A stretch of DNA of 54,769 nt. Source: a virus. Lineage: Duplodnaviria > Caudoviricetes. The position numbers and the translations under genes are program-made. Shown in pieces: positions 6,456 to 54,769 of the stretch. Under the pieces are notes generated by a model that worked only from the letters and a program-made list of their open reading frames with translations, was not told the DNA's origin and searched no databases. How positions within the stretch are numbered: position 1 is the first letter of the stretch; the number at the start of each line of letters is the position of its first letter. The stretch lies in the IMG/VR virus record IMGVR_UViG_3300048672_000251, positions 1 through 54,769 of that record; one strand, given 5' to 3'.

Positions 6456-6463
6456 TGGGGCTA
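6445..6463. terminator. Hairpin at the convergence of the early and late arms
   Basis: TAGCCCC-TTAGT-GGGGCTA covers both stop codons; U-tracts are weak. Confidence 0.5.
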
Positions 6464-8206
6464 ACTTATTGCTTGAATAATTGCATTAATTGTCAGTGCT
6501 GTTGCGTATGCCGGCTGATTTACCCCCAGCAGCGGGATACTTCCTGTCAGATTAAGCGCGACGATTATCTGATTAACTGTCAGTATATCCACGTAATCCT
6601 CTTGCGTAACCGCCAGCTTCGTCACGTTAATACCCGTTGCATCAATAATCTGATTGATCCGCAGAGCATGTGTCAGAGTTGACTGCCACGGACTCATAGT
6701 AGCAATACCAGACACCGGTGCGCTAGTCAGCACATATGTTTGAGTCGTTTGGGTGCTATCGGCTAACCCGGCTTTAAAGCTGCGGGCTTTGACTGTAGCA
6801 CTCGACGTCAATGTAAACGGCACTGAGTATAGAATAGAGCTGGTGGTTACATCACTACCATCCGTCGTGTAACGCGTCGTTGCGCCATCGGTATTGGTAG
6901 TTATTGTGATGGTGACGTTGTTAACGTATGAACCAGCAGCGGGACTCATGGATGGCGCAGCAACAGTTTCTGGCGGCTCAGCGCTGCCTTGCTGCACGGT
7001 AAACCGGTGGTTTGCACCATTCAGCCGCGTGATCCAGCAGGTATAAACAGCTTCAGGGTCTGCGCCGGTGAAATTGCCGTTGATGTCGAAATTACCCTGG
7101 CTTGACAGCTGCTCACCAGCCACCGGTACATCTGGTCCCCACGACTCGAAAGCATTTGTGGCCACAGGTGCGATCATAGTCACATACTCAACCGGCGACA
7201 CTGGCGCAAACGTGCTGCTGATAGTCTTAGCGCCAAATGTCAGATTGACCGCGCCGTATTGCACGTATTCCTGGCCAGTTGTGCTTGAGGCAAGTGCTGG
7301 CACGGTGAATGTCGCCGTTGTTGCGCTTGTAGCTGTCAGTGGTAGAACCAAGTCATTACCGCGACTATCTACAACCGTTACTGACGTTGGCAGGCTCGGG
7401 TAGTTTAACAGCGTTGCTGTGATTGTAGCGCCGGGAGTAAGTGCTGCTGATATTGAGGCTTCAAGAGCTTCGTAACCATTCGTTAGCTCCCACGGCTCTT
7501 GCGTGATACTTTCTTTCTCAGCAGTAGATAACACAGTATTGAACACAACAAAACCGGCTAGGTTCCACTCTTTGCCGGATGATACAATTGCTGCCAGCTG
7601 CGCCGATATTGGATTGGCCGCAGGAGTAAACACTGGCGCTGTAGTACCGCCAGCTGGTGTGCGGGTAATGCCGTCTGCACAAAATCCAGAAGCACCGGAA
7701 ATGTAGTCTATCGCAGTACAATGCGCCTGCTGTCGTCTAGCTGTCACTGCCGCCTGCTGCGTACTCCAGTCCAGCCCATCGCGATAGGCTTTAAAATCAG
7801 TGGTGTGAACAGTGCCGAAGTTGCCGCGCCGTGTCAGTCGGTAGTCGTATCCACCCCAGTTGCCAGCGTCTAAAATCAGCATGTCTCCGGAAGAAAGACG
7901 GATCATGCTGGTGTCGCCGCCGCCTAAGCTGTTGCTGCCGTATTGCCGGTAGATAAACATAATCGTACACGGAAACGGGATTGGCACATTGGGCGATATT
8001 GCATCAGCTGTTGCGTCAAACTGCCGGATATTAGCGCCAAGCGGTACATCATCTGCAATCGTGGCTGCGGAGCTTGTGTATACCTGACCAGCTTTTAAGT
8101 CCTTGATAGTGGTATCGAACAGAATGAACCGGTCGACTTTGCTGTAAAGCGGGTGCGCTGCATCCAGCGCCGTGATCCCATCGTATTTTTTAAGCTTTAG
8201 CGGCAT
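6461..8206 (-). CDS. Multidomain carbohydrate-binding-like virion protein (LamG-like, Ig-like and chitobiase/Fn3-associated domains)
   Basis: APSMSPAAGSY...GATTRYTTDGS...YSVPFTL...VKARSF is the chitobiase/hexosaminidase C-terminal pattern; FNTVLSTAE is a LamG-like end. Confidence 0.7.
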   Translation of the reverse strand: MPLKLKKYDGITALDAAHPLYSKVDRFILFDTTIKDLKAGQVYTSSAATIADDVPLGANIRQFDATADAISPNVPIPFPCTIMFIYRQYGSNSLGGGDTSMIRLSSGDMLILDAGNWGGYDYRLTRRGNFGTVHTTDFKAYRDGLDWSTQQAAVTARRQQAHCTAIDYISGASGFCADGITRTPAGGTTAPVFTPAANPISAQLAAIVSSGKEWNLAGFVVFNTVLSTAEKESITQEPWELTNGYEALEASISAALTPGATITATLLNYPSLPTSVTVVDSRGNDLVLPLTATSATTATFTVPALASSTTGQEYVQYGAVNLTFGAKTISSTFAPVSPVEYVTMIAPVATNAFESWGPDVPVAGEQLSSQGNFDINGNFTGADPEAVYTCWITRLNGANHRFTVQQGSAEPPETVAAPSMSPAAGSYVNNVTITITTNTDGATTRYTTDGSDVTTSSILYSVPFTLTSSATVKARSFKAGLADSTQTTQTYVLTSAPVSGIATMSPWQSTLTHALRINQIIDATGINVTKLAVTQEDYVDILTVNQIIVALNLTGSIPLLGVNQPAYATALTINAIIQAIS

Positions 8207-10036
8207 TTACACAGCCTCCACAGGGCCGAGCGTGTTTGCTCTGGCGCGTCCGTAAATATCGTAGTTAGACAGCCGGCTGTAACTACCAGCGCTATTCAGT
8301 GGTGACGTCAGCTGCACATCTGGCAAGCTGTCGTACAGCGACATTTTCAGCGCAGTGTTCAGTATGCTGTTTGTCCATCCCGCTGGTAGTGAATTCGAAT
8401 TTGCAGGGTCAAGACTGATAAACGCATTTTTATCAGAGTTTGTCGGCACAGCAGTATTAGTGCCTGCAAAGCGAAAAACAGCAAAATTGCCGTCCGATAC
8501 AATGACGTTTCGAGTTATTCGGTAATCAGCGATACTGCTACGATAATCGATATACGCAGCCGCTGCAGGGCTGTAGATGCGCGAAGATGCGTCAGAGTAT
8601 TTGTAAATCAGATTGTCTTCGATGCGGCATTCAGCAGGCAGCCAGCCGATGCCAAGATACATTGCTTCCGCACTTGTACCGTTCGCAACTTCAGCAACCG
8701 GCCCTTTGCCGCACTCAATTAAAACGTTGTTGTAAATGTGTAACCCGGCGGTCCACGCGTTAGCAGAGTGGCAGCTAATACCCGCACCTTTCTGTCTGAC
8801 GATCACATTATCATGGATTTTTGCCGTGCCAATTAACGTGCTGCTGTCGCCGTATTGGTCTGCTTGATCGTAGATGTGGATCCCAAATTTTGCCTTACAG
8901 TCGCGTAAGTGCATGAATGCAATCTCTGGCGCATTGACAGTCACGAGTGCGCGGGCTGACAGATACATTGTATGCTGATAATGGCTTGTGCCATCGCAGC
9001 CGACATTGTGGATATTGCAGCCAAAATATTTAGTCCCGTCCATGCCGTAATAGTTAGACATAATAGCGGCAGACTGGCCCGTGGTGCATGTATTCGGGTT
9101 ATCTGTTAGCTCTATACCGACAAAGCGACCCTCTTGGCACGAAACCAAGTGCGTACAGCCCACACCCGGTACAAGCTCCCCCGGTGGGGCCGGGGGCTGG
9201 TTGCCCGTCATTACTTTAAATTTGCTGACGCCAACAGCGCGGCTGTTATAGATGTGGACGCCGAATTCGTATCCGTGCACTTCGGGACGAGTGCCGGGAT
9301 ATGCACAAATCATAATTTGCTGTGACAGTGTTCCAGCTGCCCCGCGAATATACATAGCATCGCGCGCGGTAGGTGTTTCAGGAACTTCAATCACGCCACG
9401 GCTATAAACTGTATCACCAGCTTGCAGGTAGTTGCCCATACCAAGACTAGATGGGTTGCCGCCGCCGTTAATATAAAGTTTCGGTGCTGCAAATGAAGTG
9501 CCGGCGTTTGAGTTGTTACCAGTCGGAGCCACCCATAAAATGCGACCAGTGCGCACTGTAAAAGGCATATTATTGAGACTGTACCCGTCATATACAGTCG
9601 CTGCCCAGCCAGCTTTTCTAATGCGGATTGACCCGAGGCCGTCAGCGCTGCCGGCAGGAACACTGAAAGCAACTTCGTACATTAGATGACTTGTCCACAA
9701 GTCAGCCGGACCGCCCGGCAATGTACCGTCGGCTTTTTTCCAGTAATAGACATGCGCAGCAGGTCGCTCAACACCTAGCGAATCCGTATACCAGACTGTG
9801 CCGGTTGCCTCGCCGAAACCCTGCCCCCAAACAGTCACGATAACGCCTGAGCCAAGCCCGTCACCCAAGCCCGTTGCAGGACCGCTGATTAAATCCGTAA
9901 ACCGCAAAACAGGTTGAGGAATGGCACCGGGACGCACACCGTTAATCCGGTCAACGCGGGTTTGCAGCGCTGGCGGAATGTTAGACGGCACTACCGGCGT
10001 GGATAACGCTGAAAGCGAAATGTCAGTTACTGGCAT
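8207..10036 (-). CDS. Right-handed beta-helix protein (putative depolymerase or adhesin) with N-terminal IPT-like domain
   Basis: VTVWGQGFG, ILWVAPTGNNSNAGT, LQAGDTVY and repeated I.DNVI / IYNNVL / IEDNLI / ITRNVI rungs; ATG 10036 after AGGA. Confidence 0.75.
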   Translation of the reverse strand: MPVTDISLSALSTPVVPSNIPPALQTRVDRINGVRPGAIPQPVLRFTDLISGPATGLGDGLGSGVIVTVWGQGFGEATGTVWYTDSLGVERPAAHVYYWKKADGTLPGGPADLWTSHLMYEVAFSVPAGSADGLGSIRIRKAGWAATVYDGYSLNNMPFTVRTGRILWVAPTGNNSNAGTSFAAPKLYINGGGNPSSLGMGNYLQAGDTVYSRGVIEVPETPTARDAMYIRGAAGTLSQQIMICAYPGTRPEVHGYEFGVHIYNSRAVGVSKFKVMTGNQPPAPPGELVPGVGCTHLVSCQEGRFVGIELTDNPNTCTTGQSAAIMSNYYGMDGTKYFGCNIHNVGCDGTSHYQHTMYLSARALVTVNAPEIAFMHLRDCKAKFGIHIYDQADQYGDSSTLIGTAKIHDNVIVRQKGAGISCHSANAWTAGLHIYNNVLIECGKGPVAEVANGTSAEAMYLGIGWLPAECRIEDNLIYKYSDASSRIYSPAAAAYIDYRSSIADYRITRNVIVSDGNFAVFRFAGTNTAVPTNSDKNAFISLDPANSNSLPAGWTNSILNTALKMSLYDSLPDVQLTSPLNSAGSYSRLSNYDIYGRARANTLGPVEAV

Positions 10037-10046
10037 ACGGGCGATC

Positions 10047-10544
10047 CTATTTATCAATCACTTTTCGGATTATATCATACTCCGCCCGGCAAGCCATCAG
10101 CGCTTCTCGGTGCTCGTCAGCATATCCAGCCAGATTTGTTGCTCTTTGCTCAGCGCGTCCGAACAGCTCGGCGAGCACCAAGGCATCTGTGGCGGCATTT
10201 GCGCGTGCGGCGACAGTGCTGGTATCACCGGCTTGTAACAGACGTTTGCGGGCTTCAATGGCGTCGCGCAGCTCGGTAGACAGCTCAGTATTACGCCGCT
10301 CAGCAGCAGCAAGCGCGTTACGCCGCTTTTCAGATTCATCATATGATTGCTCCAGTTCAGTTAATAACGTCCGTTGCTGGCGCGCAGCGGATTCAGCAGC
10401 TACCGCCCGCGCAGTGGCGTCGGCAGTGTCCCGCTCAGCCCAACGCTGTGACCAGTCTCTGTCTGACCACTCATGGCCGCCCCAAGCGCTAATAATTATA
10501 AGTGTAATTAATATTAGCGGTAATCGTAAGATTTCATTGACCAT
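10047..10544 (-). CDS. Rz: i-spanin
   Basis: N-terminal TM helix, long Ala/Arg coiled coil, C-terminal AC..EY; located in the lysis cassette. Confidence 0.85.
   Translation of the reverse strand: MVNEILRLPLILITLIIISAWGGHEWSDRDWSQRWAERDTADATARAVAAESAARQQRTLLTELEQSYDESEKRRNALAAAERRNTELSTELRDAIEARKRLLQAGDTSTVAARANAATDALVLAELFGRAEQRATNLAGYADEHREALMACRAEYDIIRKVIDK
10097..10342 (-). CDS. Rz1: Embedded o-spanin lipoprotein
   Basis: Out-of-frame ORF inside Rz with signal peptide, lipobox LPSC and a Pro-rich mature part. Confidence 0.85.
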   Translation of the reverse strand: MMNLKSGVTRLLLLSGVILSCLPSCATPLKPANVCYKPVIPALSPHAQMPPQMPWCSPSCSDALSKEQQIWLDMLTSTEKR

Positions 10545-10721: not shown

Positions 10722-11303
10722 ATGGGTAGAAAAAAGAGTAAGGTCTACGGGGTTGGTACAAACGATGCGGACTATTGTGTGGTAACTCGAATAAATGGTA
10801 AACAGGTGTGGTGTAAGTTTTACATGACTTGGGTCTGCATGATCGGTAGATGTTATTCAAAGACTATGCTTAAGAAGCATCCGTCATACATCGGATGCTC
10901 CGTACACCATGATTGGTTAGTGTTCAGTAATTTTAAGCGTTGGATGCAAGCTCAAGATTGGCAAGGTAGGCATTTAGATAAAGATATAATTGTTCATGGG
11001 AACAAAATTTACTCAAAGGAAACGTGCGCTTTTGTCAGCCCAGAATTAAACACTTTTGTTTTACAAAGAGACGCATCTAGGGGAGAGTTCCCTATTGGCG
11101 TTTGTTTTGATTCAAGACGAAACGTGTTTAGGGCACAGTGCCGCAACCCTTTCACATATAAAAATGAAAATTTAGGCGCTTATAAAACACCAGAAGATGC
11201 CCACGAAGCGTGGAGGCGCAGAAAGCATCAGTTAGCTTGTGAGTTAGCTGATTACCAGCAAGACGTCCGTGTCGCAAATGCACTGCGGATCAGGTACGCT
11301 TAG
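10722..11303 (+). mobile_element. Free-standing HNH homing endonuclease with AP2-like C-terminal domain, antisense inside the lysis cassette
   Basis: VYGVGTND, W..MIGRCY, YIGCSV..DWLVFSNFKRW, HLDKDII.GNKIYS..TCAFV...LN, FPIGV, NLG.Y.TPEDAH.AW; lower GC than the flanks. Confidence 0.9.
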
Positions 11304-12012: not shown

Positions 12013-13773
12013 TTAACTCCTTGCCGTCCAAGTACCGGGGCTGCCCGCAGTGGTGCACTCCCAATAGTCAATTCCGCCGCCACCAGTCACGTTATAAACG
12101 CGAGAACCTACTGCACCTGTGCCGGTGCTTGGCGCCGCGTTACCGTAAGAGTATACAACACGGGCGTCAATCGCAGTAGGGTGCTGATAGCACGCTGGTA
12201 AACCGCCGGTCACGTTGGCCACTCTGCCAGACAGGTATTCATTGCGGCCGACGATTGTACCGAAGTGGCTGGCACGTAACGACACTGCAAACGAGCTTGA
12301 CGATGACTGGATTTTGTTATCATAGAATCGGTTGCCTACGCCAGAAAACGTACCTTGCTCGACGTATGTTACACCCTGTGAAAATCCGGTGCCGTCAAAG
12401 AAAGTGCCGTCAAACTCACAGTAACTGCTGGTGCCGTACATACCGATAAGCCCCGTACCGTTTGGATCGGTAGTGCTGCGCCCTTTGATGTAGCTGCGGC
12501 CAGTGATGGAGCAGTTATTGCTGTTAATGAACTGGAAGTATTCCACATCTGACTTGTCGTAAAGCGGGTTGATTGTGTGATCAATGTACCGCACGTTGCT
12601 GCACGACTCTAAACGGTTGCCGCGGTAATATGACGCAGACGTACCGCCCGACCAGTCCCGGTTATTGCGTAACGTAACGTCATTAGCTTGAAACGCTTCA
12701 AGAAACAAACCGTACTGGTTACTGTTTGCAATCAGACCACTGTTGCTGTAAGTGTTGTTCTCAATGACCACACCGCGAGTATTCGGGCTGGTGAGTGATA
12801 TGCACGCGGCACCGGCAAACGTGTTGTCAGAGATGTTGATGTGGTAAATAAATTCGCCACTGAGCAATGCGCCGGCTGATGTGGCCGCAAAGCAACCTGA
12901 CAGACCTGCCGACACCGAATTGCGGCGTACAGTAGTCCTGATGCAGTTTTGTGGTACGTTGTTATTGGGTTCCAGCAGAATAGCAGTCGTATAGCCGGTG
13001 TACTTCTCGCAGTAGTTATCTTCAAACACTAACCCGATATGGTGAACGGATGACAGACAGCCACGGAAGGGGTTTCGCAAATCACAGTTGCGTACAGCGA
13101 TGTTACGGTTTGGTGTATGTGACGGATCGCCAAGATAGCCGCCCGACGTTACCCATACGCAGTCGCCCCACACATTGACAATCTCGCAGTTGTCGATAAT
13201 CACATCCTCAGACTGACAGATACTGATGCCGTGACCATCTTCGCCGCGCCCGTTGGTCTGACTATTTGACCAGTACGATGTGTTAATACCCGGTGTTTGC
13301 GGGTTTGCAGGGTTATAACCGCCACGAATGCGCAGCCCGTCTATAGTAATATTCTTGCAGTTCAATATCACTAAAATATGCTGGTCGATGCCGGGGTTTA
13401 TATAACCTGTATATGGATTGTTCGGCTGCCCAGGGTACATACCGTCCGTTTGGTTGCGTAACAACCGCGCACCGTTACCATAAACCATAACGTCCTGTTG
13501 GGCGCTCATGGTGAAGCGGGACGTAACAAGATATGTCGCACCGGGGCGCAGCATTTTAGTTTTAGCCGTTGCGTTCCAGAATGAAGTCATGGCCGTTGTG
13601 TCATTCGTCGTACCGTCACCTACAGCACCAAACATTTCAGGTGTGACGTAGTACGCCTCGCCGTTGTACGACAACGGATGCCAGCGGTTATCAGCCCGCC
13701 ACTGCCACGTGCGACCGCCGACCGTATAGACCGCACCGACCGTAGGGCTGCTTGGAAAATTGGGTAGTGCCAT
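12013..13773 (-). CDS. Tailspike with pectate-lyase-like beta-helix (depolymerase)
   Basis: VTPEMFGAVGDGTTNDTTA entry motif, beta-helix rungs, C-terminal AP.TGT..VG..VYN...W.CTTAG.PGTW. Confidence 0.88.
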   Translation of the reverse strand: MALPNFPSSPTVGAVYTVGGRTWQWRADNRWHPLSYNGEAYYVTPEMFGAVGDGTTNDTTAMTSFWNATAKTKMLRPGATYLVTSRFTMSAQQDVMVYGNGARLLRNQTDGMYPGQPNNPYTGYINPGIDQHILVILNCKNITIDGLRIRGGYNPANPQTPGINTSYWSNSQTNGRGEDGHGISICQSEDVIIDNCEIVNVWGDCVWVTSGGYLGDPSHTPNRNIAVRNCDLRNPFRGCLSSVHHIGLVFEDNYCEKYTGYTTAILLEPNNNVPQNCIRTTVRRNSVSAGLSGCFAATSAGALLSGEFIYHINISDNTFAGAACISLTSPNTRGVVIENNTYSNSGLIANSNQYGLFLEAFQANDVTLRNNRDWSGGTSASYYRGNRLESCSNVRYIDHTINPLYDKSDVEYFQFINSNNCSITGRSYIKGRSTTDPNGTGLIGMYGTSSYCEFDGTFFDGTGFSQGVTYVEQGTFSGVGNRFYDNKIQSSSSSFAVSLRASHFGTIVGRNEYLSGRVANVTGGLPACYQHPTAIDARVVYSYGNAAPSTGTGAVGSRVYNVTGGGGIDYWECTTAGSPGTWTARS

Positions 13774-14987
13774 TAGTATACTCCGATTGCAAATACTGAT
13801 GCGTTGATGGCTGATGTCGTACCGGGCGCACCCTGTCTAAACGTTGCGGCTGATGTGCTTGGTGCACCAGTGGCCCCGTTGATGATACTCGACAAGTTAC
13901 CACCGACTGGAAAGCCCATAACCGAGACATCACCTGAAAAAGTTTGTGGAAATGTCCACGTCGTATCACTGGCACTGTAGTAGAAATTCGTAGTGCCGAA
14001 CTGTGTAGCAGCTCCCGCCACTGATATAGTGTGCCAGCAAATCTGGATGCCGCTTGTATCACCAGTACCAATCCGCAGCCACGCCCCGTTAGCATTACTG
14101 CCGCTGGTTATTTTAAGAGCGGTTAGCGCCGCAATGACGCCAGAGGATGCAAGAAAGTTTAAAGCAAATGCGGTCACTGTGGCCAATGAGGCCGTCGACG
14201 TCCCTGTAAAATACGGGAAAGTATTCGCCGTCGTACTAAGCCCCATCATTGCGCGGGTGCTGGCAGTTGTTAAAAACTGCGTGGCGCCGGCTGCAGTAAA
14301 CACCGGTACGTTATTATTTTCAGCAGTGATTGTCTGCAGCCGCGTTAATGTATCACCAAGCGTCCCGCTGCCGCCGCCAGACGAGCTAAACGTCAGGTAA
14401 GTACCGTTGTCGGTAATGGTCATGCCGGGGCCGGCAAATACTCGTTTAAACGGTTGGGTTGTGGACGTCTTGGTATTTACTAAACCGATACCCGTAGCAC
14501 CGTCGTTAACCGGTGTCAGTGTTTCCACAATCACGCTATTGCCGGACTCAGTGATGGTTACGTTATTAGCTGCACCGGCTTTAATGCGGCGGATCGGATA
14601 GTTAGACGATATCAGACCAAGCACTAACCCAGCGCCGTCTGTAGTGCCGCCAGCATTGCTTAACGTGATCGTACTACCGCCGCCAGAGCCTCCAACGAAG
14701 TTAAGCGACCCACTACCGGCCAGCAACGGAAACGCTAAATACTGCGTTGAGTCCGTATCCTGATATGAAAAAACAAGCTCGGATGCTTCAGCGTCAAAAT
14801 ACGTAACACCAGGAACTAGTGTTGTGGGCAGAGTATTGCTGTAAATAATCCCGCCACCAGTACCGCCCGCGCCGCTCTGCGCCACGAATTCACCGCGGCC
14901 GGCTGTGATTCGATACTGGAATGTCACACCGTTTACGACATACGTACCGCCGTTGACTGGTGATGATGGAAAATTCGGTAATGCCAT
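13773..14987 (-). CDS. Tail fibre with gp53-like C-terminal domain
   Basis: ANTFPYFTG..TASLA repeat; SGSNANGAW...GIQICW...WTFPQTF...AIG C-terminus. Confidence 0.8.
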   Translation of the reverse strand: MALPNFPSSPVNGGTYVVNGVTFQYRITAGRGEFVAQSGAGGTGGGIIYSNTLPTTLVPGVTYFDAEASELVFSYQDTDSTQYLAFPLLAGSGSLNFVGGSGGGSTITLSNAGGTTDGAGLVLGLISSNYPIRRIKAGAANNVTITESGNSVIVETLTPVNDGATGIGLVNTKTSTTQPFKRVFAGPGMTITDNGTYLTFSSSGGGSGTLGDTLTRLQTITAENNNVPVFTAAGATQFLTTASTRAMMGLSTTANTFPYFTGTSTASLATVTAFALNFLASSGVIAALTALKITSGSNANGAWLRIGTGDTSGIQICWHTISVAGAATQFGTTNFYYSASDTTWTFPQTFSGDVSVMGFPVGGNLSSIINGATGAPSTSAATFRQGAPGTTSAINASVFAIGVY

Positions 14988-14997
14988 TTTAGCTCCG

Positions 14998-15708
14998 TTA
15001 GCCTAATCGTTTTAGCGGTTTTGTGACCCACGCGCTACCATTCCAATACTTTAGCGGTTTTGTGACCCACGCGCTACCATTCCAATACTTTAGCGGTTTT
15101 GTAGTCCATACCGGATCATCGGGTACCCACCAGCTATTTGTAGCACCCGTAAAATTGACTAAAGATGCTTGGTTAGTACCAGCCGTTGTTCGTAGTATAT
15201 TACCCAACCCGCCAGATAAGTCGGCAGACCAAGTGCGGTCATTCACAAGTCCCGATATTTCCAGCGATTTTAAATCTATCTCAGGTGCTGTGCCGCTTGA
15301 TGATAGTGCACCGATCCGATTGAGGGCTGACGCACCAACCCATATCAAGCTAGGCGTGGAAAATGTAGACGTGTGTAACAGTACGTCATCTTTTAAAAAC
15401 GTCCACTCACCATCGAATAAGTGATTTATCCGGTAGCTGTGGTATTGGTTCAAATCAACCACAAAGTTTGGAGTAGAGTATCGCAGTACATCACCCTGCC
15501 ACACCTCTAGCGCTCCAGTTGGTGATATGGCGAGACCGTTACGCTGCGTTGTACCACCAGAACCTAAAATGCCCCGAGATACGCTGGGATATGCTCGGAG
15601 CTTTAATGTAGTCAGAAAACTATAAGTCGACTGTCCAACATCGCCAATCAGTCCACTGGCAAACTCGGCGTAGTTATTAGATGCCTGAAATCGTAGATTC
15701 CACCCCAT
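14998..15708 (-). CDS. LamG/concanavalin-like adhesin with C-terminal KPLKYWNGSAW repeats
   Basis: Beta-sandwich pattern; TGATG coupling to the upstream fibre gene; 39-bp repeats. Confidence 0.65.
   Translation of the reverse strand: MGWNLRFQASNNYAEFASGLIGDVGQSTYSFLTTLKLRAYPSVSRGILGSGGTTQRNGLAISPTGALEVWQGDVLRYSTPNFVVDLNQYHSYRINHLFDGEWTFLKDDVLLHTSTFSTPSLIWVGASALNRIGALSSSGTAPEIDLKSLEISGLVNDRTWSADLSGGLGNILRTTAGTNQASLVNFTGATNSWWVPDDPVWTTKPLKYWNGSAWVTKPLKYWNGSAWVTKPLKRLG
15011..15102. repeat. 39-bp perfect tandem repeat (about 2.4 copies)
   Basis: Units 15011-15049 and 15050-15088, partial 15089-15102. Confidence 0.95.
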
Positions 15709-16664
15709 CAGTTAATATCCAGCCAGAGTTTAGTTGTGTCTGTTGGCGCAGTGGTGCTGACCACAATTTCCTTAACATCTGTCAGCATCGACCACGTATC
15801 AGCGCCGGTACGCCGCGGTACGCCATTTGTGGATAATGCAGCGATTGCCGTCAAGTCACCGTCCAGCGGCTGTTTACCGCTAAGCGCTGACGCTAACCCT
15901 GTAATTGCGCTCATAGGGTGCTGGTCGTTTGCGTCACGGTTAGTCAGCAATGCGTGGTCTGTTGTACCGCCCCCACCGCCCCCGGTCGCGCTGATGGTGA
16001 CCGTGGTACTGGTATTACTTAGCGTTACGCCAGAGCCGGCCACCAGCGATTTAAATTGCAGGTCGACGCCTGACTTAGCTGCAAATAGCCCAGTACCTGC
16101 ACCAAGGTTTGAAGCTGTGTTAGCCTCACCACTGCTACTACCACCGCCCCCAAGCGGTTTTGCGAGCGGAAAAGTCACATATTGTGTCGTGTCGCCATCG
16201 TCATAGGAAAACGCCAGCTCGAATGTTTCAGCGTTGAAATACGTGACGCCTTCTACAAATGATGACGGCGGCGGATCGTATACAATGCCGTTACCGCTGC
16301 CACCAGCAGAGTTAACCACCAGCAGCCACTTACCGGCGCCGATGCCGCCAGACGTTGCAGGTGTGCCACCGGCTGTCACAGTTTTAGGTAATGTACCGTC
16401 CCACCGGTATAATTCACCTGTGGCAGCATATCGCAGCGCCTCGCTGCGGCTGGTGATTGTGGCGCCGGTTTCAAAGCTGTCAACAACTGTCCACCCGATC
16501 AAGTCCAGCGCATCGTTAAACTGCTTATCGTAACCGGCAAGGGTGTCAACGGTTTTACCGCTAGGGGTAACGGTGGTGAGTTCGTCGCCGTTGACAATCG
16601 TGTCAACAGTCTCCATGTTTGCAACGAAGCGCTGAATATCTGTATTAATATTGCCGCAACTCAT
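15708..16664 (-). CDS. Tail fibre or adaptor with tailspike N-terminal (TSP1/gp63-like) anchor
   Basis: GWTVVDSFETGATI...YRWDGTLPKTV.AG.TPATSGGIGAGKW anchor; H..L.NRDA.DQHP..AITGL and KQPLD.DLTAIAAL fibre motifs. Confidence 0.82.
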   Translation of the reverse strand: MSCGNINTDIQRFVANMETVDTIVNGDELTTVTPSGKTVDTLAGYDKQFNDALDLIGWTVVDSFETGATITSRSEALRYAATGELYRWDGTLPKTVTAGGTPATSGGIGAGKWLLVVNSAGGSGNGIVYDPPPSSFVEGVTYFNAETFELAFSYDDGDTTQYVTFPLAKPLGGGGSSSGEANTASNLGAGTGLFAAKSGVDLQFKSLVAGSGVTLSNTSTTVTISATGGGGGGTTDHALLTNRDANDQHPMSAITGLASALSGKQPLDGDLTAIAALSTNGVPRRTGADTWSMLTDVKEIVVSTTAPTDTTKLWLDIN

Positions 16665-19246
16665 GGGTCTAAGTCTCCGTCATAATAGGCGCTGTCATAG
16701 TTGATAAATGAGACCGACACTTTATCGTATTGCGTTGGTACAACATCCACGACGGTCATTGCCATTGCTGTACGCATATCGTCGTTGCCTATAACGTAAG
16801 GCGTGCGGTCAGCATCCCGGCCAGTTTGCGGCGCTTCAGTTAAAGCACCACTGATTATAACCTGATTGGGCGCTGGTTGCGATAGTATCTGCCGCGTCTG
16901 TGCCATACCATCAGACATGGTAAGCGATATGGCATAATCCGTTGGTGTGGCTAACGTGACCGGCTGGCTTAAAGTCAGTATTAAGCCGTCAACCGCTTTA
17001 ATCTCACCGTCGTACACAGCTGCACGCGTGTTATCCACAACATCAACGCGCATACCGGGCGCTATTAGCCGACCAATTGCTGTAAGGTCGCACTTATGCT
17101 GTACGCGGGCGCCAAGCAGCTTTGCGTATTCCCGACGCGCCCTGATATTAGCGCCCTGCTTCGTAATGCAGCCTGATAATTCTATCTGCAGTGGGTTCAC
17201 ATCCGATCCGAGCTTGACAACATCAAAGCTGCGTTCAGATGCGTTGTAATAGGTCAGCTCAACGCCTGTCTTGTCATCACGGTTGCCGTATGTCCGCACC
17301 CGCTCGTCGCTGCCAGGGTGTTTGTGGCGGTGGCCGATTGACATTGCGCTGGTAGCCTGTGGCCGCTCAAAATAAAATTGCAGCACCGATCCGACCCGAT
17401 ATGGTCTGACGTTGACCGCATCGCAAATCATCCTGATAGCATCCTCAGCGGTAATGTTATCTGAGTCAAACGTGTAGCCGACGCGCAGCGGATTATCGCT
17501 GCCGTAATAACTGATCATCTGAGTTTGCAGCGCGAAAAGCTGCGCCCAGTCTACCTCGTCATCCCGCATGCGACCGAATAGCGGATCACGGCAAATGCTG
17601 GCCAACACCGGCGCAAATAAAACGGCTGGTTCTGTCTCGCTGGTGCCGAATGTACCACCGCTGTACGGGGCCACACGCCGCGTGACGTCACAGTTAAGTT
17701 TGCGCTCTTTTACCCGCAGTGCTGATTCAGTGGCGCGGATCTGCGCGTGAATTGTCGTTGCATAGCTGGTATCAATGCTGTTAACGGTGTTCACCAGATA
17801 CAGGTCGCGCCATTGAATTTCGTCAACCACAGTGCCCGCGAATACTGTGTCGGTGTTGCCGGTACGCTTAACGAGGATTTCAGCGTTATCGTATGGTACG
17901 GCGATATCCACAGTAATACCGGTCGACAGCTTAGGGTCGGCAACGTTTGCCGGTACGGTGTACATAGTTTCCGTAACTAAACCAGTCGGCGCGCCGGTTT
18001 CTGTGGTCTGGCGGATGGTCACTGAAAACATCGCATCGATACTTGGCGTCACCGTGTCGCCGTTGTCCTTAAACAAACCGTTGCGGGCAACCACGTTGAG
18101 CCATACACGGGCGTAACCGCTGATATCAATTGGCCCAACGCTATTGCCGGATACACCCACGCCGTCAATACTTGGCGCGTATGTGACTTGATATGCCACA
18201 GCGCCAGGGTTGGACGTGTACCAGATGTTCTGGTCGGCTAAGTCGTTCCAAACGACGCTGCGCATGGGCTGCGGGCCGCTTAAAGTAGCAAAAGCCGCTG
18301 ACCATTCCGGCGTGGTGTCGATGGTGATTGTAGATGCTGTAACAGCAGAAACAGTGTACTGTCCGCCGATTGGAAACTGTAAGCTACCGCCGCCGTCCGC
18401 TACCTCACGGTATGTAAAGAAGTCGGCAAAGGTAACAGAGCCGCCTACTGTTAAAAACGTCGTAAAGTCCACAGTAGAGCCAGTAACACTGACCACGCCA
18501 GCAGATGTGGCAGTGATGGACAGCGACGTTGTGCCAAGACCGCCAGCGTTAGGCGCTTTGAGTATCACGCCGTCGACTTCATTACTCTGAACGACGGTGT
18601 ATAGCGATTCTTCAGGAATAAAGCCGACACTCTGATACGGTGCGCCAGAAAGCGGGCTGGTGCCGGGGCCATATACAGCAGCGCCAGCGCCTTGAATTTT
18701 TGACAGCAGCGTATCGCCATCACGGATATTTTCAACCTGTACATAGCCTTCAGAGATCTGACCGTAGATGTACTCGATTTCCGTACCCTGCACAAATTTA
18801 CGATACGGCAGCTGCAATAAATCCACATACGCGCCAGCCACATAACCGCGGATATCCGCCGCCCGTTCATTGACGCGGGCAGTGTTTGACCGATTGCTGA
18901 GCGAGTTGTTAGGTGACTGCTGGTTGCGGTTGGCGTTTGTCGGTGCTGCGATCTTTGGGATGCTTGTTAGCGCAACGACCGATACGACGACCGCAATAAC
19001 CACAAGTGCGGCAGTGAGCGGATCACCAGGGGCCACTGTGATATCGTAAACGGCGTCATCAGTGCTAAACGCGACCGATTGGTCGACCAACAGTGTGGCA
19101 GTGATATCAACGCCGTTACGCGCAATGCGCATTCCACCGGGTACACCGGCGCCGTCAGGGTAGCGTGCGACCAGCTCAGCAGCAAGGGTATCAGCTGTGC
19201 GCTGCTCATAACTGTCATCGGCATACCAGTAATTTATCTTAACCAT
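16661..19246 (-). CDS. Central tail tip / host specificity protein (TipJ family)
   Basis: SPNNSLSNRSNTARVNER..DIRG, ERKLNC.VTR, GVELTY and C-terminal INYDSAYYDGD; follows NlpC. Confidence 0.85.
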   Translation of the reverse strand: MVKINYWYADDSYEQRTADTLAAELVARYPDGAGVPGGMRIARNGVDITATLLVDQSVAFSTDDAVYDITVAPGDPLTAALVVIAVVVSVVALTSIPKIAAPTNANRNQQSPNNSLSNRSNTARVNERAADIRGYVAGAYVDLLQLPYRKFVQGTEIEYIYGQISEGYVQVENIRDGDTLLSKIQGAGAAVYGPGTSPLSGAPYQSVGFIPEESLYTVVQSNEVDGVILKAPNAGGLGTTSLSITATSAGVVSVTGSTVDFTTFLTVGGSVTFADFFTYREVADGGGSLQFPIGGQYTVSAVTASTITIDTTPEWSAAFATLSGPQPMRSVVWNDLADQNIWYTSNPGAVAYQVTYAPSIDGVGVSGNSVGPIDISGYARVWLNVVARNGLFKDNGDTVTPSIDAMFSVTIRQTTETGAPTGLVTETMYTVPANVADPKLSTGITVDIAVPYDNAEILVKRTGNTDTVFAGTVVDEIQWRDLYLVNTVNSIDTSYATTIHAQIRATESALRVKERKLNCDVTRRVAPYSGGTFGTSETEPAVLFAPVLASICRDPLFGRMRDDEVDWAQLFALQTQMISYYGSDNPLRVGYTFDSDNITAEDAIRMICDAVNVRPYRVGSVLQFYFERPQATSAMSIGHRHKHPGSDERVRTYGNRDDKTGVELTYYNASERSFDVVKLGSDVNPLQIELSGCITKQGANIRARREYAKLLGARVQHKCDLTAIGRLIAPGMRVDVVDNTRAAVYDGEIKAVDGLILTLSQPVTLATPTDYAISLTMSDGMAQTRQILSQPAPNQVIISGALTEAPQTGRDADRTPYVIGNDDMRTAMAMTVVDVVPTQYDKVSVSFINYDSAYYDGDLDP

Positions 19247-20459: not shown

Positions 20460-20808
20460 TTAGCACCTCAAACTTAGCGGAAAGTACCCCGCGAAACCCA
20501 TAGCTTACAATCACTGGCGGCGCTGAAAACTGCACGGTGTATAACTGCAGCGGTCCGCCGTTTACCGATAGTTTTGCGGTAAATGATGCGCCACCCTCAA
20601 GCGCAACAACCCGATACCAGGCTTTAAACCACTCAATTTGCCAACAGTCCTGCAGCAAGTAATCAGCCGGTACAATTGCCAGCGGCGATACTTGATTGCG
20701 GATCTGCCGGCTGACGCCACCGGCGAGTTTTAATTCATACACTGCGCGCGGCAAATCCGGTGTATGGCCGGTTTTCAGCGGAACCATGTACTCACCACCA
20801 TACATCAT
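20440..20808 (-). CDS. Distal-tail-like minor tail protein (copy 1)
   Basis: LAGG.SRQ, F.AWYR....EGG.SF and Y.VQF..PP; directly after the TMP. Confidence 0.65.
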   Translation of the reverse strand: MMYGGEYMVPLKTGHTPDLPRAVYELKLAGGVSRQIRNQVSPLAIVPADYLLQDCWQIEWFKAWYRVVALEGGASFTAKLSVNGGPLQLYTVQFSAPPVIVSYGFRGVLSAKFEVLSGPITV

Positions 20809-23756
20809 CAGCGACGCTCCAATCTGTATGCGTTGTTCATTGAGCGGTTGAATTTGCTGTATGAGTCTGTCGCTTGCTCAGCCATCACACCCGGTACGCG
20901 CTCGTTAATGCGCCGGTCAATTGTGGCTATCAGCTCACCGTCTGGACCTTCAGCCACAGTCACGTCTGCCACATCTGCAGCGTTGTTGTTAATCGTAACG
21001 CGCATACCGCTTGAGCCGGACTGTGTGCCGCCATAAGTACCGCGGCGCATGGCGTCAAGCTCGTTACGATACTGGTCGGTGCGTTGCGCCGGCATGACGT
21101 ACTCACCGTTGCTGAGCATAGCCGGGATGCTATCACTGCGCCCGGTACCCGGTCCTGACACATAGCCGCCATCTGCGAAATTAGCAGGCGCTTTCAGCGA
21201 CGTCAGCAGCCCAGCGCCAGCCGTGGCAATCGCTGCGTAGTTGGCTATTTTCTGTGGCAGTGTTACAGCCGTTGGATCTGCCAGCGCTTGTGCCTGTGCT
21301 TGCGCCAGTTTAGCGATACTGTCAGCCAATGCAAATGCGCGGGATGCCGCAAACACTGCACGGTATGCTTTGGATGACTTGCCGCCGCCAGCTTCAATAA
21401 TACCGGCAAGCGCATCAAGGCCCTGTGCCGCCGCTTGCCGCATCGCCGAGTTGCTGGCAGATTGTGCGGCAGCGCGTTTGGTGGCCAGCTCTTTATCGAG
21501 GTTGACCACACGTTGGTTGTATTCTTCCTGCCCGATCAATTCTTCATAATAGGCGTTAAACAGCAGGTCTTTGCGTTCCTGTATTTCACGCTCTAACTTT
21601 TGTGCCGGGGTTTCTTCAGCATTGCCGAACTCGCGTACAGCGTTTGCCTCTGTGATAGCCCGCTCAGCTTCCTGCTGTGCGTACAGCGATTGTGTGAGGG
21701 CTTCCACAGCTGCGCGTTGTTCGGCGGTTGCCCCGGCTGACAGCCGCGCTAAGTTTGCGTTAACCTGCGCTTGGAGTCCTACTTCTTTCTCAGCAGCGAC
21801 TTGCCGGCCAAGGCTCAGGATATATTTATCAGCCTCTGCCCGCTGCTGCTCGACAACCGCCTGTGCTGCAAGGTCGGTGTACGCTTTGATCTGCGCTTCA
21901 GTCAGCTTCACGCCTTCTTTGGTGGATTTGTTTAACAGCTCCTGACGGGCTTGTAATCTGGCTTGTTCGACTTCGGTCAGCCCGATCAGTGCTATCTGCT
22001 GCTCAAGTTTTAATTTCAGTTCGTCGTAAAACTTAAGGGTTTCGTCAGCTTCCGGGGGCTTAAGCCATTTGTCTGCATCTGGCGCACGGGATTGGAACAG
22101 TGCGTCTAGTTGTTTTTTCGTGGACTCAAGCGCAAGTTTAAGATCGTTAACCCTTGCTTGCGCTGCAGCCAGCTCAGCACTAGCTGTAACGTCGCCGCCC
22201 ACAAAGCTCTGACCGCGTGATGAGTTTGCATCATCTGCTTTGCGCTTCGCTTCTTCAAGCAAGCGGTTAGACTCAATTAACTGATCGTTAAGACTTATCT
22301 GCTGCTTAGTCAGATCCTCAACAAACCCACGCTGTCTGAGTCGCCCCATCTCGCCATAGTTTTTAACAAGGCGCTCAAGTTCGTCGTTTACTTTACTGTC
22401 GCGGGTTTTCTGGCCGGCCTCTGCGGCGCTATCCGCAAAATACAGCAGTGCAGAGCCTGCCAGTATCGCCACGCCTGCTGGTCCGCCGAGCAGTGCCATA
22501 GCTGCGGATAACCCACGTGTAGCTGTTGCCAGTGCGCCAGTAGCGGCTGCGGCTGTGTTGGCAGCAGTTAACCGGGCGTTTGCGACGTTAAGGGTTTCAG
22601 TTGTACGGGCTGCGGCGGCGGTAGCCACTGCCACACTACCCTGCGCCCGAGTCTGTGCGTTCAGCACTGGGATCAGCCGAGCAATGGATTCTGTTTCTAA
22701 CGCTGTGGCACGGGTGTTTTGTGTGGCTGCAATGGTCGCCGCCAGCTTTTCGCGCTTGGCCGCCAGTGCTTGCATCGCTGCAATTTTTTCAACTTCTGCA
22801 CGCCGCACCGCAGCGCCGGCCGCTAACTGTTCAGCCTTAATACTTTCCAGTGTGGCAGCGTTTGCGGCAACTGTGGCGGCTTGTTTAGCGATCAGCTGAC
22901 CGACTAACCGTGAGGCGTATATGGCCGCCAGCGCGGTCGCAGCGTCTGCCGCAGTGTCCAAGTTTTCAGCCAGTGTTACCAGTGTGGCGCCAGCGGCAGC
23001 AGAGGCTTTACGGATATTATCGGACGTGCCGACCCATTCCGTGGAAAGGTTGCGGGCAACGGTAAGCTGCTGATCGAATGTGGTCGCTGTGCGGGCAAAC
23101 TCGCGGTCTATGGTAGCCGCGTAACCCTCAATCGACTTGATCAGGATGTCGGCAGTAATGCCACCCTGTGCGGCGAATTCGCGCAGCTGACCGATAGTTT
23201 TACCGGTCTCTTGCGATACGGCACGCAGAATAACCGGTGCTTGTTCAGCCACGGAGTTGAATTCGTCACCACGCAACGTGCCCGACGCGAGACCCTGTGC
23301 AAGTTGGATCATAGCGTTACTGGCTTCAGTCACCGTAGCGCCACTAGACACGAAACCCTTGTTAATGAGGTCGGTAATGCGCAACACCCGGTCCTGACTG
23401 ATGCCGAGTTCATCCGTGGCGCGTTTTAATTTACCGTACAGTGCGGCGGTTGCTTCAAAGCTACTGCGGGATTGGTTGGCCACACGTAACAGCTCGCCGG
23501 TGCGTTGCGTCAGCTCCTGAGTGCTGCTGACAACGTTAACGATACTGTTCTGGATTTTAGTGTAACTGTCCGACAGTTTAACGAGCTGGCTGATACCAGC
23601 CCCTGTCGCAATTGTGGCAATGGCAGCACCGAGCGCACGGGAAGCTGTAGCCGCCGCCGTTGCGCTCTTATCAGTTTCGTTCAGCTGTCGATTGAGTGGT
23701 CCGAGCTTACTGGCGTCGGACGTATCAATCTTTATGTCTATTGGAAACTGTGCCAT
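20808..23756 (-). CDS. Tape measure protein
   Basis: 982 aa, Ala-rich and helical; QLAQGLASGTLRGDEFNSVAEQAP; C-terminal FADGGYVSGPGTGRSDSIPAMLSNGEYV. Confidence 0.96.
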   Translation of the reverse strand: MAQFPIDIKIDTSDASKLGPLNRQLNETDKSATAAATASRALGAAIATIATGAGISQLVKLSDSYTKIQNSIVNVVSSTQELTQRTGELLRVANQSRSSFEATAALYGKLKRATDELGISQDRVLRITDLINKGFVSSGATVTEASNAMIQLAQGLASGTLRGDEFNSVAEQAPVILRAVSQETGKTIGQLREFAAQGGITADILIKSIEGYAATIDREFARTATTFDQQLTVARNLSTEWVGTSDNIRKASAAAGATLVTLAENLDTAADAATALAAIYASRLVGQLIAKQAATVAANAATLESIKAEQLAAGAAVRRAEVEKIAAMQALAAKREKLAATIAATQNTRATALETESIARLIPVLNAQTRAQGSVAVATAAAARTTETLNVANARLTAANTAAAATGALATATRGLSAAMALLGGPAGVAILAGSALLYFADSAAEAGQKTRDSKVNDELERLVKNYGEMGRLRQRGFVEDLTKQQISLNDQLIESNRLLEEAKRKADDANSSRGQSFVGGDVTASAELAAAQARVNDLKLALESTKKQLDALFQSRAPDADKWLKPPEADETLKFYDELKLKLEQQIALIGLTEVEQARLQARQELLNKSTKEGVKLTEAQIKAYTDLAAQAVVEQQRAEADKYILSLGRQVAAEKEVGLQAQVNANLARLSAGATAEQRAAVEALTQSLYAQQEAERAITEANAVREFGNAEETPAQKLEREIQERKDLLFNAYYEELIGQEEYNQRVVNLDKELATKRAAAQSASNSAMRQAAAQGLDALAGIIEAGGGKSSKAYRAVFAASRAFALADSIAKLAQAQAQALADPTAVTLPQKIANYAAIATAGAGLLTSLKAPANFADGGYVSGPGTGRSDSIPAMLSNGEYVMPAQRTDQYRNELDAMRRGTYGGTQSGSSGMRVTINNNAADVADVTVAEGPDGELIATIDRRINERVPGVMAEQATDSYSKFNRSMNNAYRLERR

Positions 23757-30784: not shown

Positions 30785-31273
30785 CTACTCGCCTGTCAAG
30801 TAATTATTTTCAGCTGCCCACGCTAACGCAGCGGATTTACCTTTCAGCTTCGATGGGTTCACCGGGCCGAGACCTTCCACAACAACGTTGTACCAGCCCA
30901 TACCGAGGTTTTCCAATGTGGCGGGGATGCCGGCGGCTTCAGGTGCTGTTACGGCTTCAGGTGCTACTGCGGCTGGCTCCGTTACCACTGCGGCTGGCTC
31001 CGTTACCACTGCGGCTGGCTCCGTTACCACTGCGGCTGGCTCCGTTACCACTGCGGCTGGCTCCGTTACCACTGCGGCTGGCTCGTCCACATTACCATCG
31101 AGCGTGTGGCGGATTTGGCGCGCATTCCACAGACGCGAAACCATGTGCTGACCAATAGCCATGTGACGCCAGTTAAACTCGTCGCCTGGTTTAAAAATCT
31201 GTGCGCCGTACTGAAATTCCACAATTGCGTACAGCGGCTTTGATAAATCTAAGTCCTCAAATTTGTATGTCAT
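30785..31273 (-). CDS. Hypothetical (likely virion-associated) protein with EPAAVVT repeat linker
   Basis: GGAG RBS; follows the MCP; two globular ends joined by the repeat. Confidence 0.75.
   Translation of the reverse strand: MTYKFEDLDLSKPLYAIVEFQYGAQIFKPGDEFNWRHMAIGQHMVSRLWNARQIRHTLDGNVDEPAAVVTEPAAVVTEPAAVVTEPAAVVTEPAAVVTEPAAVAPEAVTAPEAAGIPATLENLGMGWYNVVVEGLGPVNPSKLKGKSAALAWAAENNYLTGE
30966..31084. repeat. Perfect 21-bp tandem repeat (about 5.7 copies)
   Basis: Unit ACTGCGGCTGGCTCCGTTACC. Confidence 0.96.
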
Positions 31274-54211: not shown

Positions 54212-54769
54212 ATGACAATTGAAATTAAAGTAACTGGCGCTGATGCCGCCGAAACCGCCCAGCAGTTTTTAGGGCTTGCAGGTTATTTTGGTGCATCACA
54301 TGCGCTGCCAGTATCAGTCGTGACTGCCGCAGTTACAGCTGATGCCGATGACGAAGAAGGCGGTAAGCTGGATTACGCCACTGCCCGTGATGAAAAAGGC
54401 GTTGCGTTTAACGATTCATATTTTGGCAAGGCCACAAACCCATTCTACCCTAACGGACAGTGGAAAAAACGTAAGGGTGTAAGTCAGGCAGATTACGATA
54501 ACTATTACGCTGGTGAATTAGCAAAGTTGCAGGCAGCGGCCTCAGGTGCACCGGCTGCGGACGTGGCACCAGCGCCTGCCCCACAGGTTGCACAGACCAA
54601 TACTGTGGTGGATGTTGCCCCTGCTGCTGACGTACCGCCTCCACCAGCACCTCAGGCAGCTCCAGCACCTCAGGCAGCTCCAGCACCTCAGGCAGCTCCA
54701 GCACCTCAGGCAGCTCCAGCACCTCAGGCAGCTCCAGCACCTCAGGCAGCTCCAGCAGCGGGCAAGACC
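54212..54769 (+). CDS. 5' part of the junction-spanning Pro/Ala-rich protein (continues at 1-366)
   Basis: GGAG RBS; DEKGV.F...GQWKKRKGV motif; no stop before the window end. Confidence 0.85.
   Translation, partial: MTIEIKVTGADAAETAQQFLGLAGYFGASHALPVSVVTAAVTADADDEEGGKLDYATARDEKGVAFNDSYFGKATNPFYPNGQWKKRKGVSQADYDNYYAGELAKLQAAASGAPAADVAPAPAPQVAQTNTVVDVAPAADVPPPPAPQAAPAPQAAPAPQAAPAPQAAPAPQAAPAPQAAPAAGKT
54641..54769. repeat. Right-end copy of the terminal overlap: 6 units of the 18-bp repeat
   Basis: Units span 54644-54751. Confidence 0.97.

Follow-up and report, generated by a model that had tools for sequence, protein, structure and literature searches.

Introduction

For many Klebsiella phages, a scheme has been modelled in which a first receptor-binding protein (RBP1) carries the virion anchor and a docking site, and an anchor-less second one (RBP2) is attached to the latter by a conserved peptide at its N-terminus (PMC6872550). 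In the case of KP32, K11 and KP34, this scheme has been validated by deletions and swaps, the peptide being 29 amino acids (aa) long and the site a T4gp10-like domain (PMC13352976, where the multi-layer branched RBPs of CBA120-type phages are also named). The present work deals with the virus record IMGVR_UViG_3300048672_000251, whose 54,769 bases, i.e., the whole record, are hereafter referred to as the window, and with three genes of its tail operon, coding for proteins A, B and C, in which two short modules, P and S, are shared in such a way that the three proteins are likely to form a branched RBP set. In a preliminary description, obtained from the DNA letters alone, it was proposed that P docks into S, giving rise to a complex of the type A<-B<-C; the principle of branched RBPs, which that description took as already established, is indeed validated in podophages (PMC6872550, PMC13352976).

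Branched RBP sets determine the number of hosts that can be recognised, and they represent handles for plug-and-play engineering of the host range. In the CBA120-type phages (Ackermannviridae), which harbor the tailspikes TSP1-4, the secondary RBP itself offers a docking site to the next one, and the TSP complex, located on a myophage baseplate, makes use of XD/T4gp10-like domains. To our knowledge, all the sockets validated so far are T4gp10-like domains of podo- and myophages. A different arrangement is reported for the JD001 group of Klebsiella phages, where an anchor protein without a T4gp10-like domain is accompanied by a depolymerase with a conserved N-terminus of about 70 aa (PMC6872550).

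Modules Shared by Proteins A, B and C

The three genes lie on the minus strand, where the preliminary description had placed them: A (318 aa) at 15708..16664, B (404 aa) at 13773..14987 and C (586 aa) at 12013..13773. A recognisable virion anchor is present in A alone of the three, and B and C begin with a common short peptide. Module S, about 43 aa long, is common to A and B, 28 out of 51 positions being identical (55%) between A 127-176 and B 47-94 (BLASTP, E-value 2e-12). Module P, of 26-37 aa, opens both B and C, with 17/26 identical residues (65%) between B 1-26 and C 1-26 (E-value 2e-7). When the whole window was scanned with hidden Markov models (HMMs) of the two modules, S was found only in A (residues 126-167, 16164..16289, minus strand, E-value 5.7e-17) and in B (residues 46-88, 14724..14852, minus strand), and P only in B (residues 1-37, 14877..14987, minus strand, E-value 8e-15) and in C (residues 1-37, 13663..13773, minus strand, E-value 5e-14), C being devoid of S. 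The assignment of both modules in the preliminary description is thus borne out. The back-translated P pattern has exactly two matches in the window, at the start codons of B and C, and none in 100 shuffled versions of it (dinucleotide-preserving). At the DNA level the two copies of P are near-identical only over the first ~21 nucleotides (nt); since they have diverged beyond this point, they represent an old paralogy rather than a recent copy. Each of the modules splits into two sequence subtypes: the S of A is of the alpha and that of B of the beta subtype, and the P modules of B and C are referred to as P_B and P_C, respectively.

The N-terminal residues 1-118 of A (16311..16664, minus strand) comprise helices followed by a Tail_spike_N domain. 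Residues 15-118 match residues 20-123 of the Sf11 tailspike gp13 (PDB 9occ_G) with an E-value of 6.7e-24, and residues 63-116 match the Pfam family Tail_spike_N (PF18668, E-value 3.4e-15), which confirms the virion anchor attributed earlier to this protein. Moreover, residues 59-120 match the N-terminal tailspike domain of the CBA120 TSP1, TSP3 and TSP4 chains (4oj5, 5w6f, 5w6h; E-values 1e-12 to 9e-10). Cryo-electron microscopy of Sf11 has revealed that helices 4-59 of gp13 are bundled with a single helix of gp17, the distal tail protein (PMC12724387), which by analogy would offer a concrete model for the fixation of A to a siphophage tip. However, Sf11 gp13 is a complete single tailspike, whereas A is reduced to the anchor, S, a single shaft repeat and a conserved end: S is followed by one unit of a repeat called K, a stretch resembling a "phage tail repeat", and a C-terminal module of about 55 aa (residues 265-318, 15711..15872, minus strand). 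A is a virion-anchored adaptor without a receptor-binding tip of its own. In one adaptor-like protein of 387 aa (P0025), an S of the beta subtype (at ~142) and one of the alpha subtype (at ~251) are present together with the invariant C-terminus; under the docking model discussed below, this protein would be a two-socket adaptor.

The "knobs" that had been noticed in both A and B correspond to a real repeat, K, which is not a knob but a tandem shaft repeat. Its unit of about 48 aa occupies residues 180-227 of A (15984..16127, minus strand) and residues 158-203 of B (14379..14516, minus strand), the latter being matched by an HMM constructed on 18 units of eight other proteins (E-value 2.2e-6). 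Tandem copies occur in relatives, at least six in P0089 and three each in P0087 and P0038. The K regions of some relatives also give partial matches to the profile PRD1_P5_C (PF08949), namely P0005 (E-value 3.4e-7) and the RBP1s of the loci L003 (1.1e-5) and L005 (4.8e-4); no match to this profile was obtained with A and B themselves.

Protein B is composed of P, a Gly linker, S, shaft repeats and a receptor-binding tip domain (residues 290-404, 13776..14120, minus strand), the latter modelled by AlphaFold2 with a predicted local distance difference test score (pLDDT) of 80-95. The tip was the only domain identified by Foldseek on the model of B, and its matches are the C-termini of R1/R2 pyocin fibres and gp53 of AP22 (E-values 6e-5 to 3e-3). 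In the case of C, 17 of the 21 full-length homologs have precomputed Beta_helix or pectate-lyase-like Pfam matches, as does the homolog located in L002, in line with the beta-helix previously assigned to C; C itself shows just a sub-threshold match to End_N_terminal. Searches of Pfam and PHROG with B and C found no anchor family.

Gene Order in Related Loci

Five IMG/VR loci (L002, L003, L004, L005 and L006) are related to B; four of them contain S, and L006 contains neither module. In all four S-bearing loci (4/4, L004 and L005 being near-identical), the gene directly following the S-bearing one starts with P. The body located behind P varies: L002 has a homolog of C at this place, L003 an unrelated beta-helix, and L005 a fibre carrying an S74 chaperone. 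The same four contigs came up when IMG/VR was scanned with S as the only query, and a single-protein scan of it with B found nothing. The DNA pattern of MALPxFPxxP matched 117 stretches, mostly by chance, three of which encode true P proteins. One of these three, extended to the locus L126, was found via P alone; its RBP1 (873 aa) combines a weak T7-fibre-like N-terminus with one S (S-HMM, E-value 1.3e-7) and a beta-helix, has neither a K repeat nor a B-type tip, and is directly followed by a gene for a P-initiated beta-helix protein. No relative of this RBP1 was found besides itself.

The element common to the RBP1s of the window (A), L002, L003, L005 and L126 is S only, each time directly behind the anchor. 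The anchors themselves are of different kinds: Sf11-like, P22 Head_binding (E-value 3.7e-15), T7-like and others. The co-occurrence of P and S across phage genomes, which the preliminary description had indicated as a check, is observed in unrelated phage backbones, namely in the 4/4 S-bearing loci and in L126.

Pairs of Homologs and Matching of Subtypes

The B homologs (n = 24, B included) keep the body of the protein, and their N-terminus varies, comprising P22 Head_binding, the T7 tail-fibre N-terminus, Tail_spike_N and others. On the contrary, the P of C is kept in 21/21 full-length homologs (seven weak partial matches, P0221-P0227, were excluded from this count). B and C homologs, as well as adaptors and B homologs, were paired by inferring their co-location from equally long source contigs, the gene order not being visible; in one B/C pair the NCBI locus tags are adjacent. 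Among the 15 B-type fibres paired in this way with a C homolog, 5/15 start with P and 10/15 with other anchors. Since the P of C remains constant while the anchors of its partners change, neither the anchor nor the virion tail seems to be the conserved partner of P. Scans of Metagenome_contigs for relatives confirmed nothing.

The subtypes of the two modules go together. P_B occurs together with alpha-S not only in the window (A-B) but also in contig 46770 (P0070-P0016) and in L005, where the bodies are different. For P_C, the accompanying S is of the beta subtype, both in the window (B-C) and in L002, as well as in 14 further pairs. This pairing agrees with the predicted order A<-B<-C. Moreover, the two S-bearing adaptors with a paired fibre (window; 46770) go with a P-type B (2/2).

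A Proposed Docking Model and Its Alternatives

According to the model that we favour, A would probably be fixed to the distal tail protein by its Sf11-gp13-like N-terminus, by analogy with Sf11. B (a fibre whose tip is pyocin-like) and C (a beta-helix tailspike), both without an anchor, would each be loaded via the ~35-aa P at their N-terminus, and P would sit on the S repeat located directly behind the anchor, or the N-terminus, of the preceding protein. Thus, the alpha-S of A is the candidate socket for the P of B, and the beta-S of B the candidate socket for the P of C, which would result in A<-B<-C. We infer the binding of P to S, the chain order and the stoichiometry, next to modules, anchor homology, gene grammar and a recurrence in other backbones that are observed. 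The parts of the model differ in strength. That the three proteins make up a branched set, with another RBP carrying B and C through their P, is quite likely from the sequence data; whether S is the socket for P, for which the support is of a comparative kind, is an evenly balanced question; and the strict order A<-B<-C is put forward tentatively, its probability being somewhat below even.

If the model were true, a second and much smaller socket/plug pair, working on a siphophage tip, recurring behind no fewer than four unrelated anchors and perhaps with orthogonal specificities, would extend the engineering toolbox, and the many anchor-less fibre genes of environmental phage genomes would be explained. 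If docking failed, what remains would be a modular RBP cluster, well documented and composed of a common fibre repeat. In a broader and rather speculative extension, whose probability we consider low, S-type (DUF2793-like) repeats might be a general lateral socket for P-type peptides: a fibre with both P and S would be plug and socket at the same time, allowing open-ended daisy chains; assembly would be ordered by two or more orthogonal pairs (P_B/alpha-S and P_C/beta-S); a change of the anchor of the first protein would suffice for the system to pass from sipho- to podophage tails or back; and it would underlie the tandem arrays of two to four P-initiated genes in many marine phage contigs.

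Several observations weigh against the docking of P into S. In the preliminary description P docks into S; S is, however, no dedicated socket domain but a widespread shaft repeat, occurring one or two times per fibre (twice in many of the 24 B homologs, including anchored ones) and up to eight times in distant proteins. Being so abundant in these fibres, its co-occurrence with P is partly expected. P, in turn, appears to be a diverged copy of an S repeat, a point that the preliminary description did not contain. The profiles of P and S align in register (hhalign, E-value 2.2e-4, with a probability of only 45%), and the AlphaFold2 monomer of B has the same three-strand meander predicted in both modules, with strands 15-18, 21-28 and 31-36 in P and 62-65, 70-76 and 81-87 in S; taken together, the profile alignment and the strand pattern make it probable that P derives from S, and their resemblance also fits a plain repeat family without mutual binding. 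The monomer models are weak in the S region for both proteins (below 50 in A, whose mean pLDDT is 43.1, and about 70 in B, whose mean is 67.7), and with such a low confidence a fold-level search or comparison of S is not possible. As regards the pairs of homologs, most B/C co-locations derive from equally long source contigs, and the 15 cassettes are related to one another and hence not independent.

The wide family adds to these points. In an exhaustive HMMER search with B 1-95, 65 representatives were retrieved at an E-value <= 0.001, many of which align query residues 1-85 at their own residues 1-87, so that "P, Gly linker, S (often several)" appears to be a common fibre N-terminus; B 1-95 aligns with this wide P+S family with E-values from 1e-5 to 1e-12. 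The exact P pattern of the wide family occurs in 108 IMG/VR stretches, often in two to four genes per contig. Among 73 distinct P genes of the family, a P-less S-bearing open reading frame (ORF) lies directly upstream in only nine; for the others, a P gene is upstream in 17, neither is found within 2 kb in 45 (13 of them at the edge of the locus) and there is nothing in two. This count is noisy, at least one "P-less" ORF being misclassified, and it neither supports nor refutes the docking idea. In the loci L127-L206, the P-initiated fibre genes of the wide family are often organized in tandem arrays of two to four, about half of them having S right after P and the rest P only.

The S repeats of the wide family also reach a known domain. 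Those of P0048 match Pfam DUF2793 (PF10983) with an E-value of 2.7e-7 and 30.8 bits against a cut-off of 27, and the same domain is precomputed on 6/120 of the listed matches of A; A and B themselves do not match it. DUF2793 is known from the RcGTA tail fibre Rcc00171, for which no docking role is proposed in the available part of the source (PMC5026251). Sequence and profile searches of the PDB with P and S gave nothing significant; the best hits, a phiKZ-like gp184 (E-value 0.017) and an SH3b domain (E-value 0.023), were treated as due to chance.

A first alternative is that B and C are loaded via P, but that the socket is another conserved part of the carrier, in the first place the C-terminal module of A, which would give an end-on joint, or else the K shaft repeat. 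The C-terminal module has the look of an S-type repeat of which only the first half is present, and P might supply the remainder. Its last ~55 aa are near-identical in 11/12 aligned adaptor-like proteins in spite of N-terminal anchors of several unrelated kinds, a conservation typical of an interface, and this weighs against S as the socket; the module may indeed be an interface. An end-on partner would also be natural for a protein without its own tip, and the S-HMM gives a faint, insignificant match at A 300-309. Furthermore, the A-type C-terminal module is retained in S-less adaptors (P0090, P0111, P0119, P0108, P0092), two of which pair with a B-type fibre (8647: P0090, P0004; 7803: P0111, P0012), a P-bearing C homolog (P0208) being matched only for P0090. 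However, in both cases (2/2) the partner of the S-less adaptor is an anchored B, not a P-type one. Besides, P-initiated RBP2s are present in L002, L003, L004/L005 and L126, where the A-type C-terminal module was not found by tblastn or in the ORF lists, and the RBP1 of L126 is without K repeats too. Overall, a socket outside S seems unlikely.

According to a second alternative, P and S belong to one family of trimeric-shaft repeats without any mutual binding, and P is an N-terminal cap attaching B and C to the tip protein, to the distal tail protein, to the laminin G (LamG)-like ORF located between A and B, or via another protein. The widespread "P, Gly linker, S" N-terminus with its variable number of S repeats, the many contigs carrying several P genes, the weak similarity of the two profiles with their identical strand pattern, and the fact that most P genes of the wide family have no S-bearing carrier within 2 kb are all in favour of it. 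Yet the P of C is invariant while its partner fibres swap anchors that fit sipho- or podophage tails, so that a direct contact with the tail would need to be re-invented repeatedly, and P-only proteins are encoded immediately behind anchored S-bearing genes in five backbones. This explanation, too, is judged improbable. Lastly, soluble second depolymerases have been proposed for some Klebsiella siphophages (PMC6872550). That B and/or C are likewise not virion parts but soluble, depolymerase-like or lectin-like proteins released at lysis, with a shared N-terminus serving for folding or export, is very improbable, given the fibre shaft and pyocin-fibre-like tip of B, the location of both genes in the tail operon, where their stops and starts overlap, and the fusion of the B body to bona fide virion anchors in relatives.

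Comparison with Described Systems

The favoured model, in which S is the candidate socket for P, shares several traits with systems of Klebsiella and E. coli podophages such as KP32 gp37-gp38, K11, KP34, K1-5 and G7C gp66-gp63.1: the RBP1 is anchored, with the candidate site right behind the anchor (PMC6872550, PMC13352976), and, as in the KP32-type systems, the anchor-less RBP2 begins with a short conserved peptide (29 aa in KP32, about 26-37 aa here), is encoded directly downstream and has a swappable body. However, the candidate site is not a T4gp10-like domain but a ~43-aa repeat, which can be found two times in one fibre and of which the plug appears to be a diverged copy; in addition, A as the carrier lacks an enzymatic or binding body, and the backbone belongs to a siphophage. 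In a sequence-level comparison with T4 gp10, neither S nor the A family resembled a branching domain of this type (hhalign alignment probability of 0.5% for S and 0.1% for the A family), and no gp10 chain was retrieved in the PDB sequence searches. The proposed chain is multi-layered like the CBA120-type complexes, and A matches the TSP N-terminal domain, but no XD/T4gp10-like domains were detected here. Judging from its description, the JD001 group resembles A in having a separate anchor protein without an enzymatic body and a non-T4gp10 attachment, and differs from it in the length of the peptide and in the type of phage. An open-access full-text literature search retrieved no description of the P/S pair, and none of a branched set located on a tip of the 9NA/Sf11 type. 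The principle of anchor, branching site and N-terminal peptide is already established; the P/S pair and its setting on a siphophage tip may be new.

Genomic Context and Other Features of the Window

Positions 22-147 of the window are identical to 54644-54769; since its ends repeat each other, the record corresponds to a circularly assembled phage genome, and it is the complete genome of an uncultured siphophage whose tail tip is 9NA/Sf11-like. The tail operon runs on the minus strand, starting with the tape measure protein (20808-23756), which is followed by four small tail proteins and by the tail tip/baseplate hub protein of 861 aa (16661..19246; phrog_469 tail protein, E-value 1e-146). Then come A, ORF236 (14998..15708, coding for 236 aa), B and C, and finally the lysis genes (SLT transglycosylase and DUF2514 spanin). 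Stops and starts overlap by 1-4 nt between the tip gene and A (4 nt), A and ORF236, and B and C (1 nt). The tip protein shares 33-37% identity, over 97-100% of its length, with those of Enterobacter phage Mulvp2 and of the Salmonella phages 9NA and Sasha, among others; it matches 726 records, every one below 60% identity. As in the 9NA/Sasha type, this homologous tip protein adjoins the RBP genes.

Cultured phages gave few additional matches. A DNA-level search of them with the window found none, nor did tblastn with B at an E-value <= 0.01, and P0040 returned a single irrelevant match. With a fragment containing S and K, only the K repeat was matched, in Pseudomonas phage Rollin, whose fibre has neither P nor a full S.

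ORF236 codes for a LamG-like jellyroll, as indicated by its features and by structure matches to Laminin_G_3 clusters, with a weak match to DUF2510; it has no PHROG match and contains neither P nor S. At its end, a ~13-aa unit is repeated in tandem about 2.5 times, and this repeat shows a weak DUF2510-like motif. L002 (9585-11186) and phage Rollin (L240, 5400-6263) likewise have a LamG-like ORF behind their fibre genes, that of Rollin being labelled from a reading of its translation only. A relationship between ORF236 and the LamG-like ORF of L002 was rejected, their sequences showing no detectable similarity (E-value 0.18).

Downstream of the lysis genes, two large ORFs lie on the minus strand, one of 616 aa (8207-10057) and one of 581 aa (6461-8206), without P, S, an anchor or a PHROG match; the second one contains CHB_HEX_C_1 and Fn3_assoc domains. 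They may represent further surface-active or soluble proteins. Tandem repeats of 9/18 nt, rich in Ser/Thr/Gly codons, are located at 1-201, 2216-2386 and 54590-54769, and the overlap of the circular assembly falls inside a repeat-rich ORF that spans the window ends. Another tandem repeat, of 21 nt in six copies with 73-100% identity, is present at 30936-31103, in a gene on the minus-strand side of the structural region. Finally, an ORF of 193 aa is found on the opposite (plus) strand within the lysis cassette (10722-11303); it has a sub-threshold match to an AP2 domain (E-value 0.0056) and, from its sequence, looks like an inserted gene of the homing-endonuclease type.

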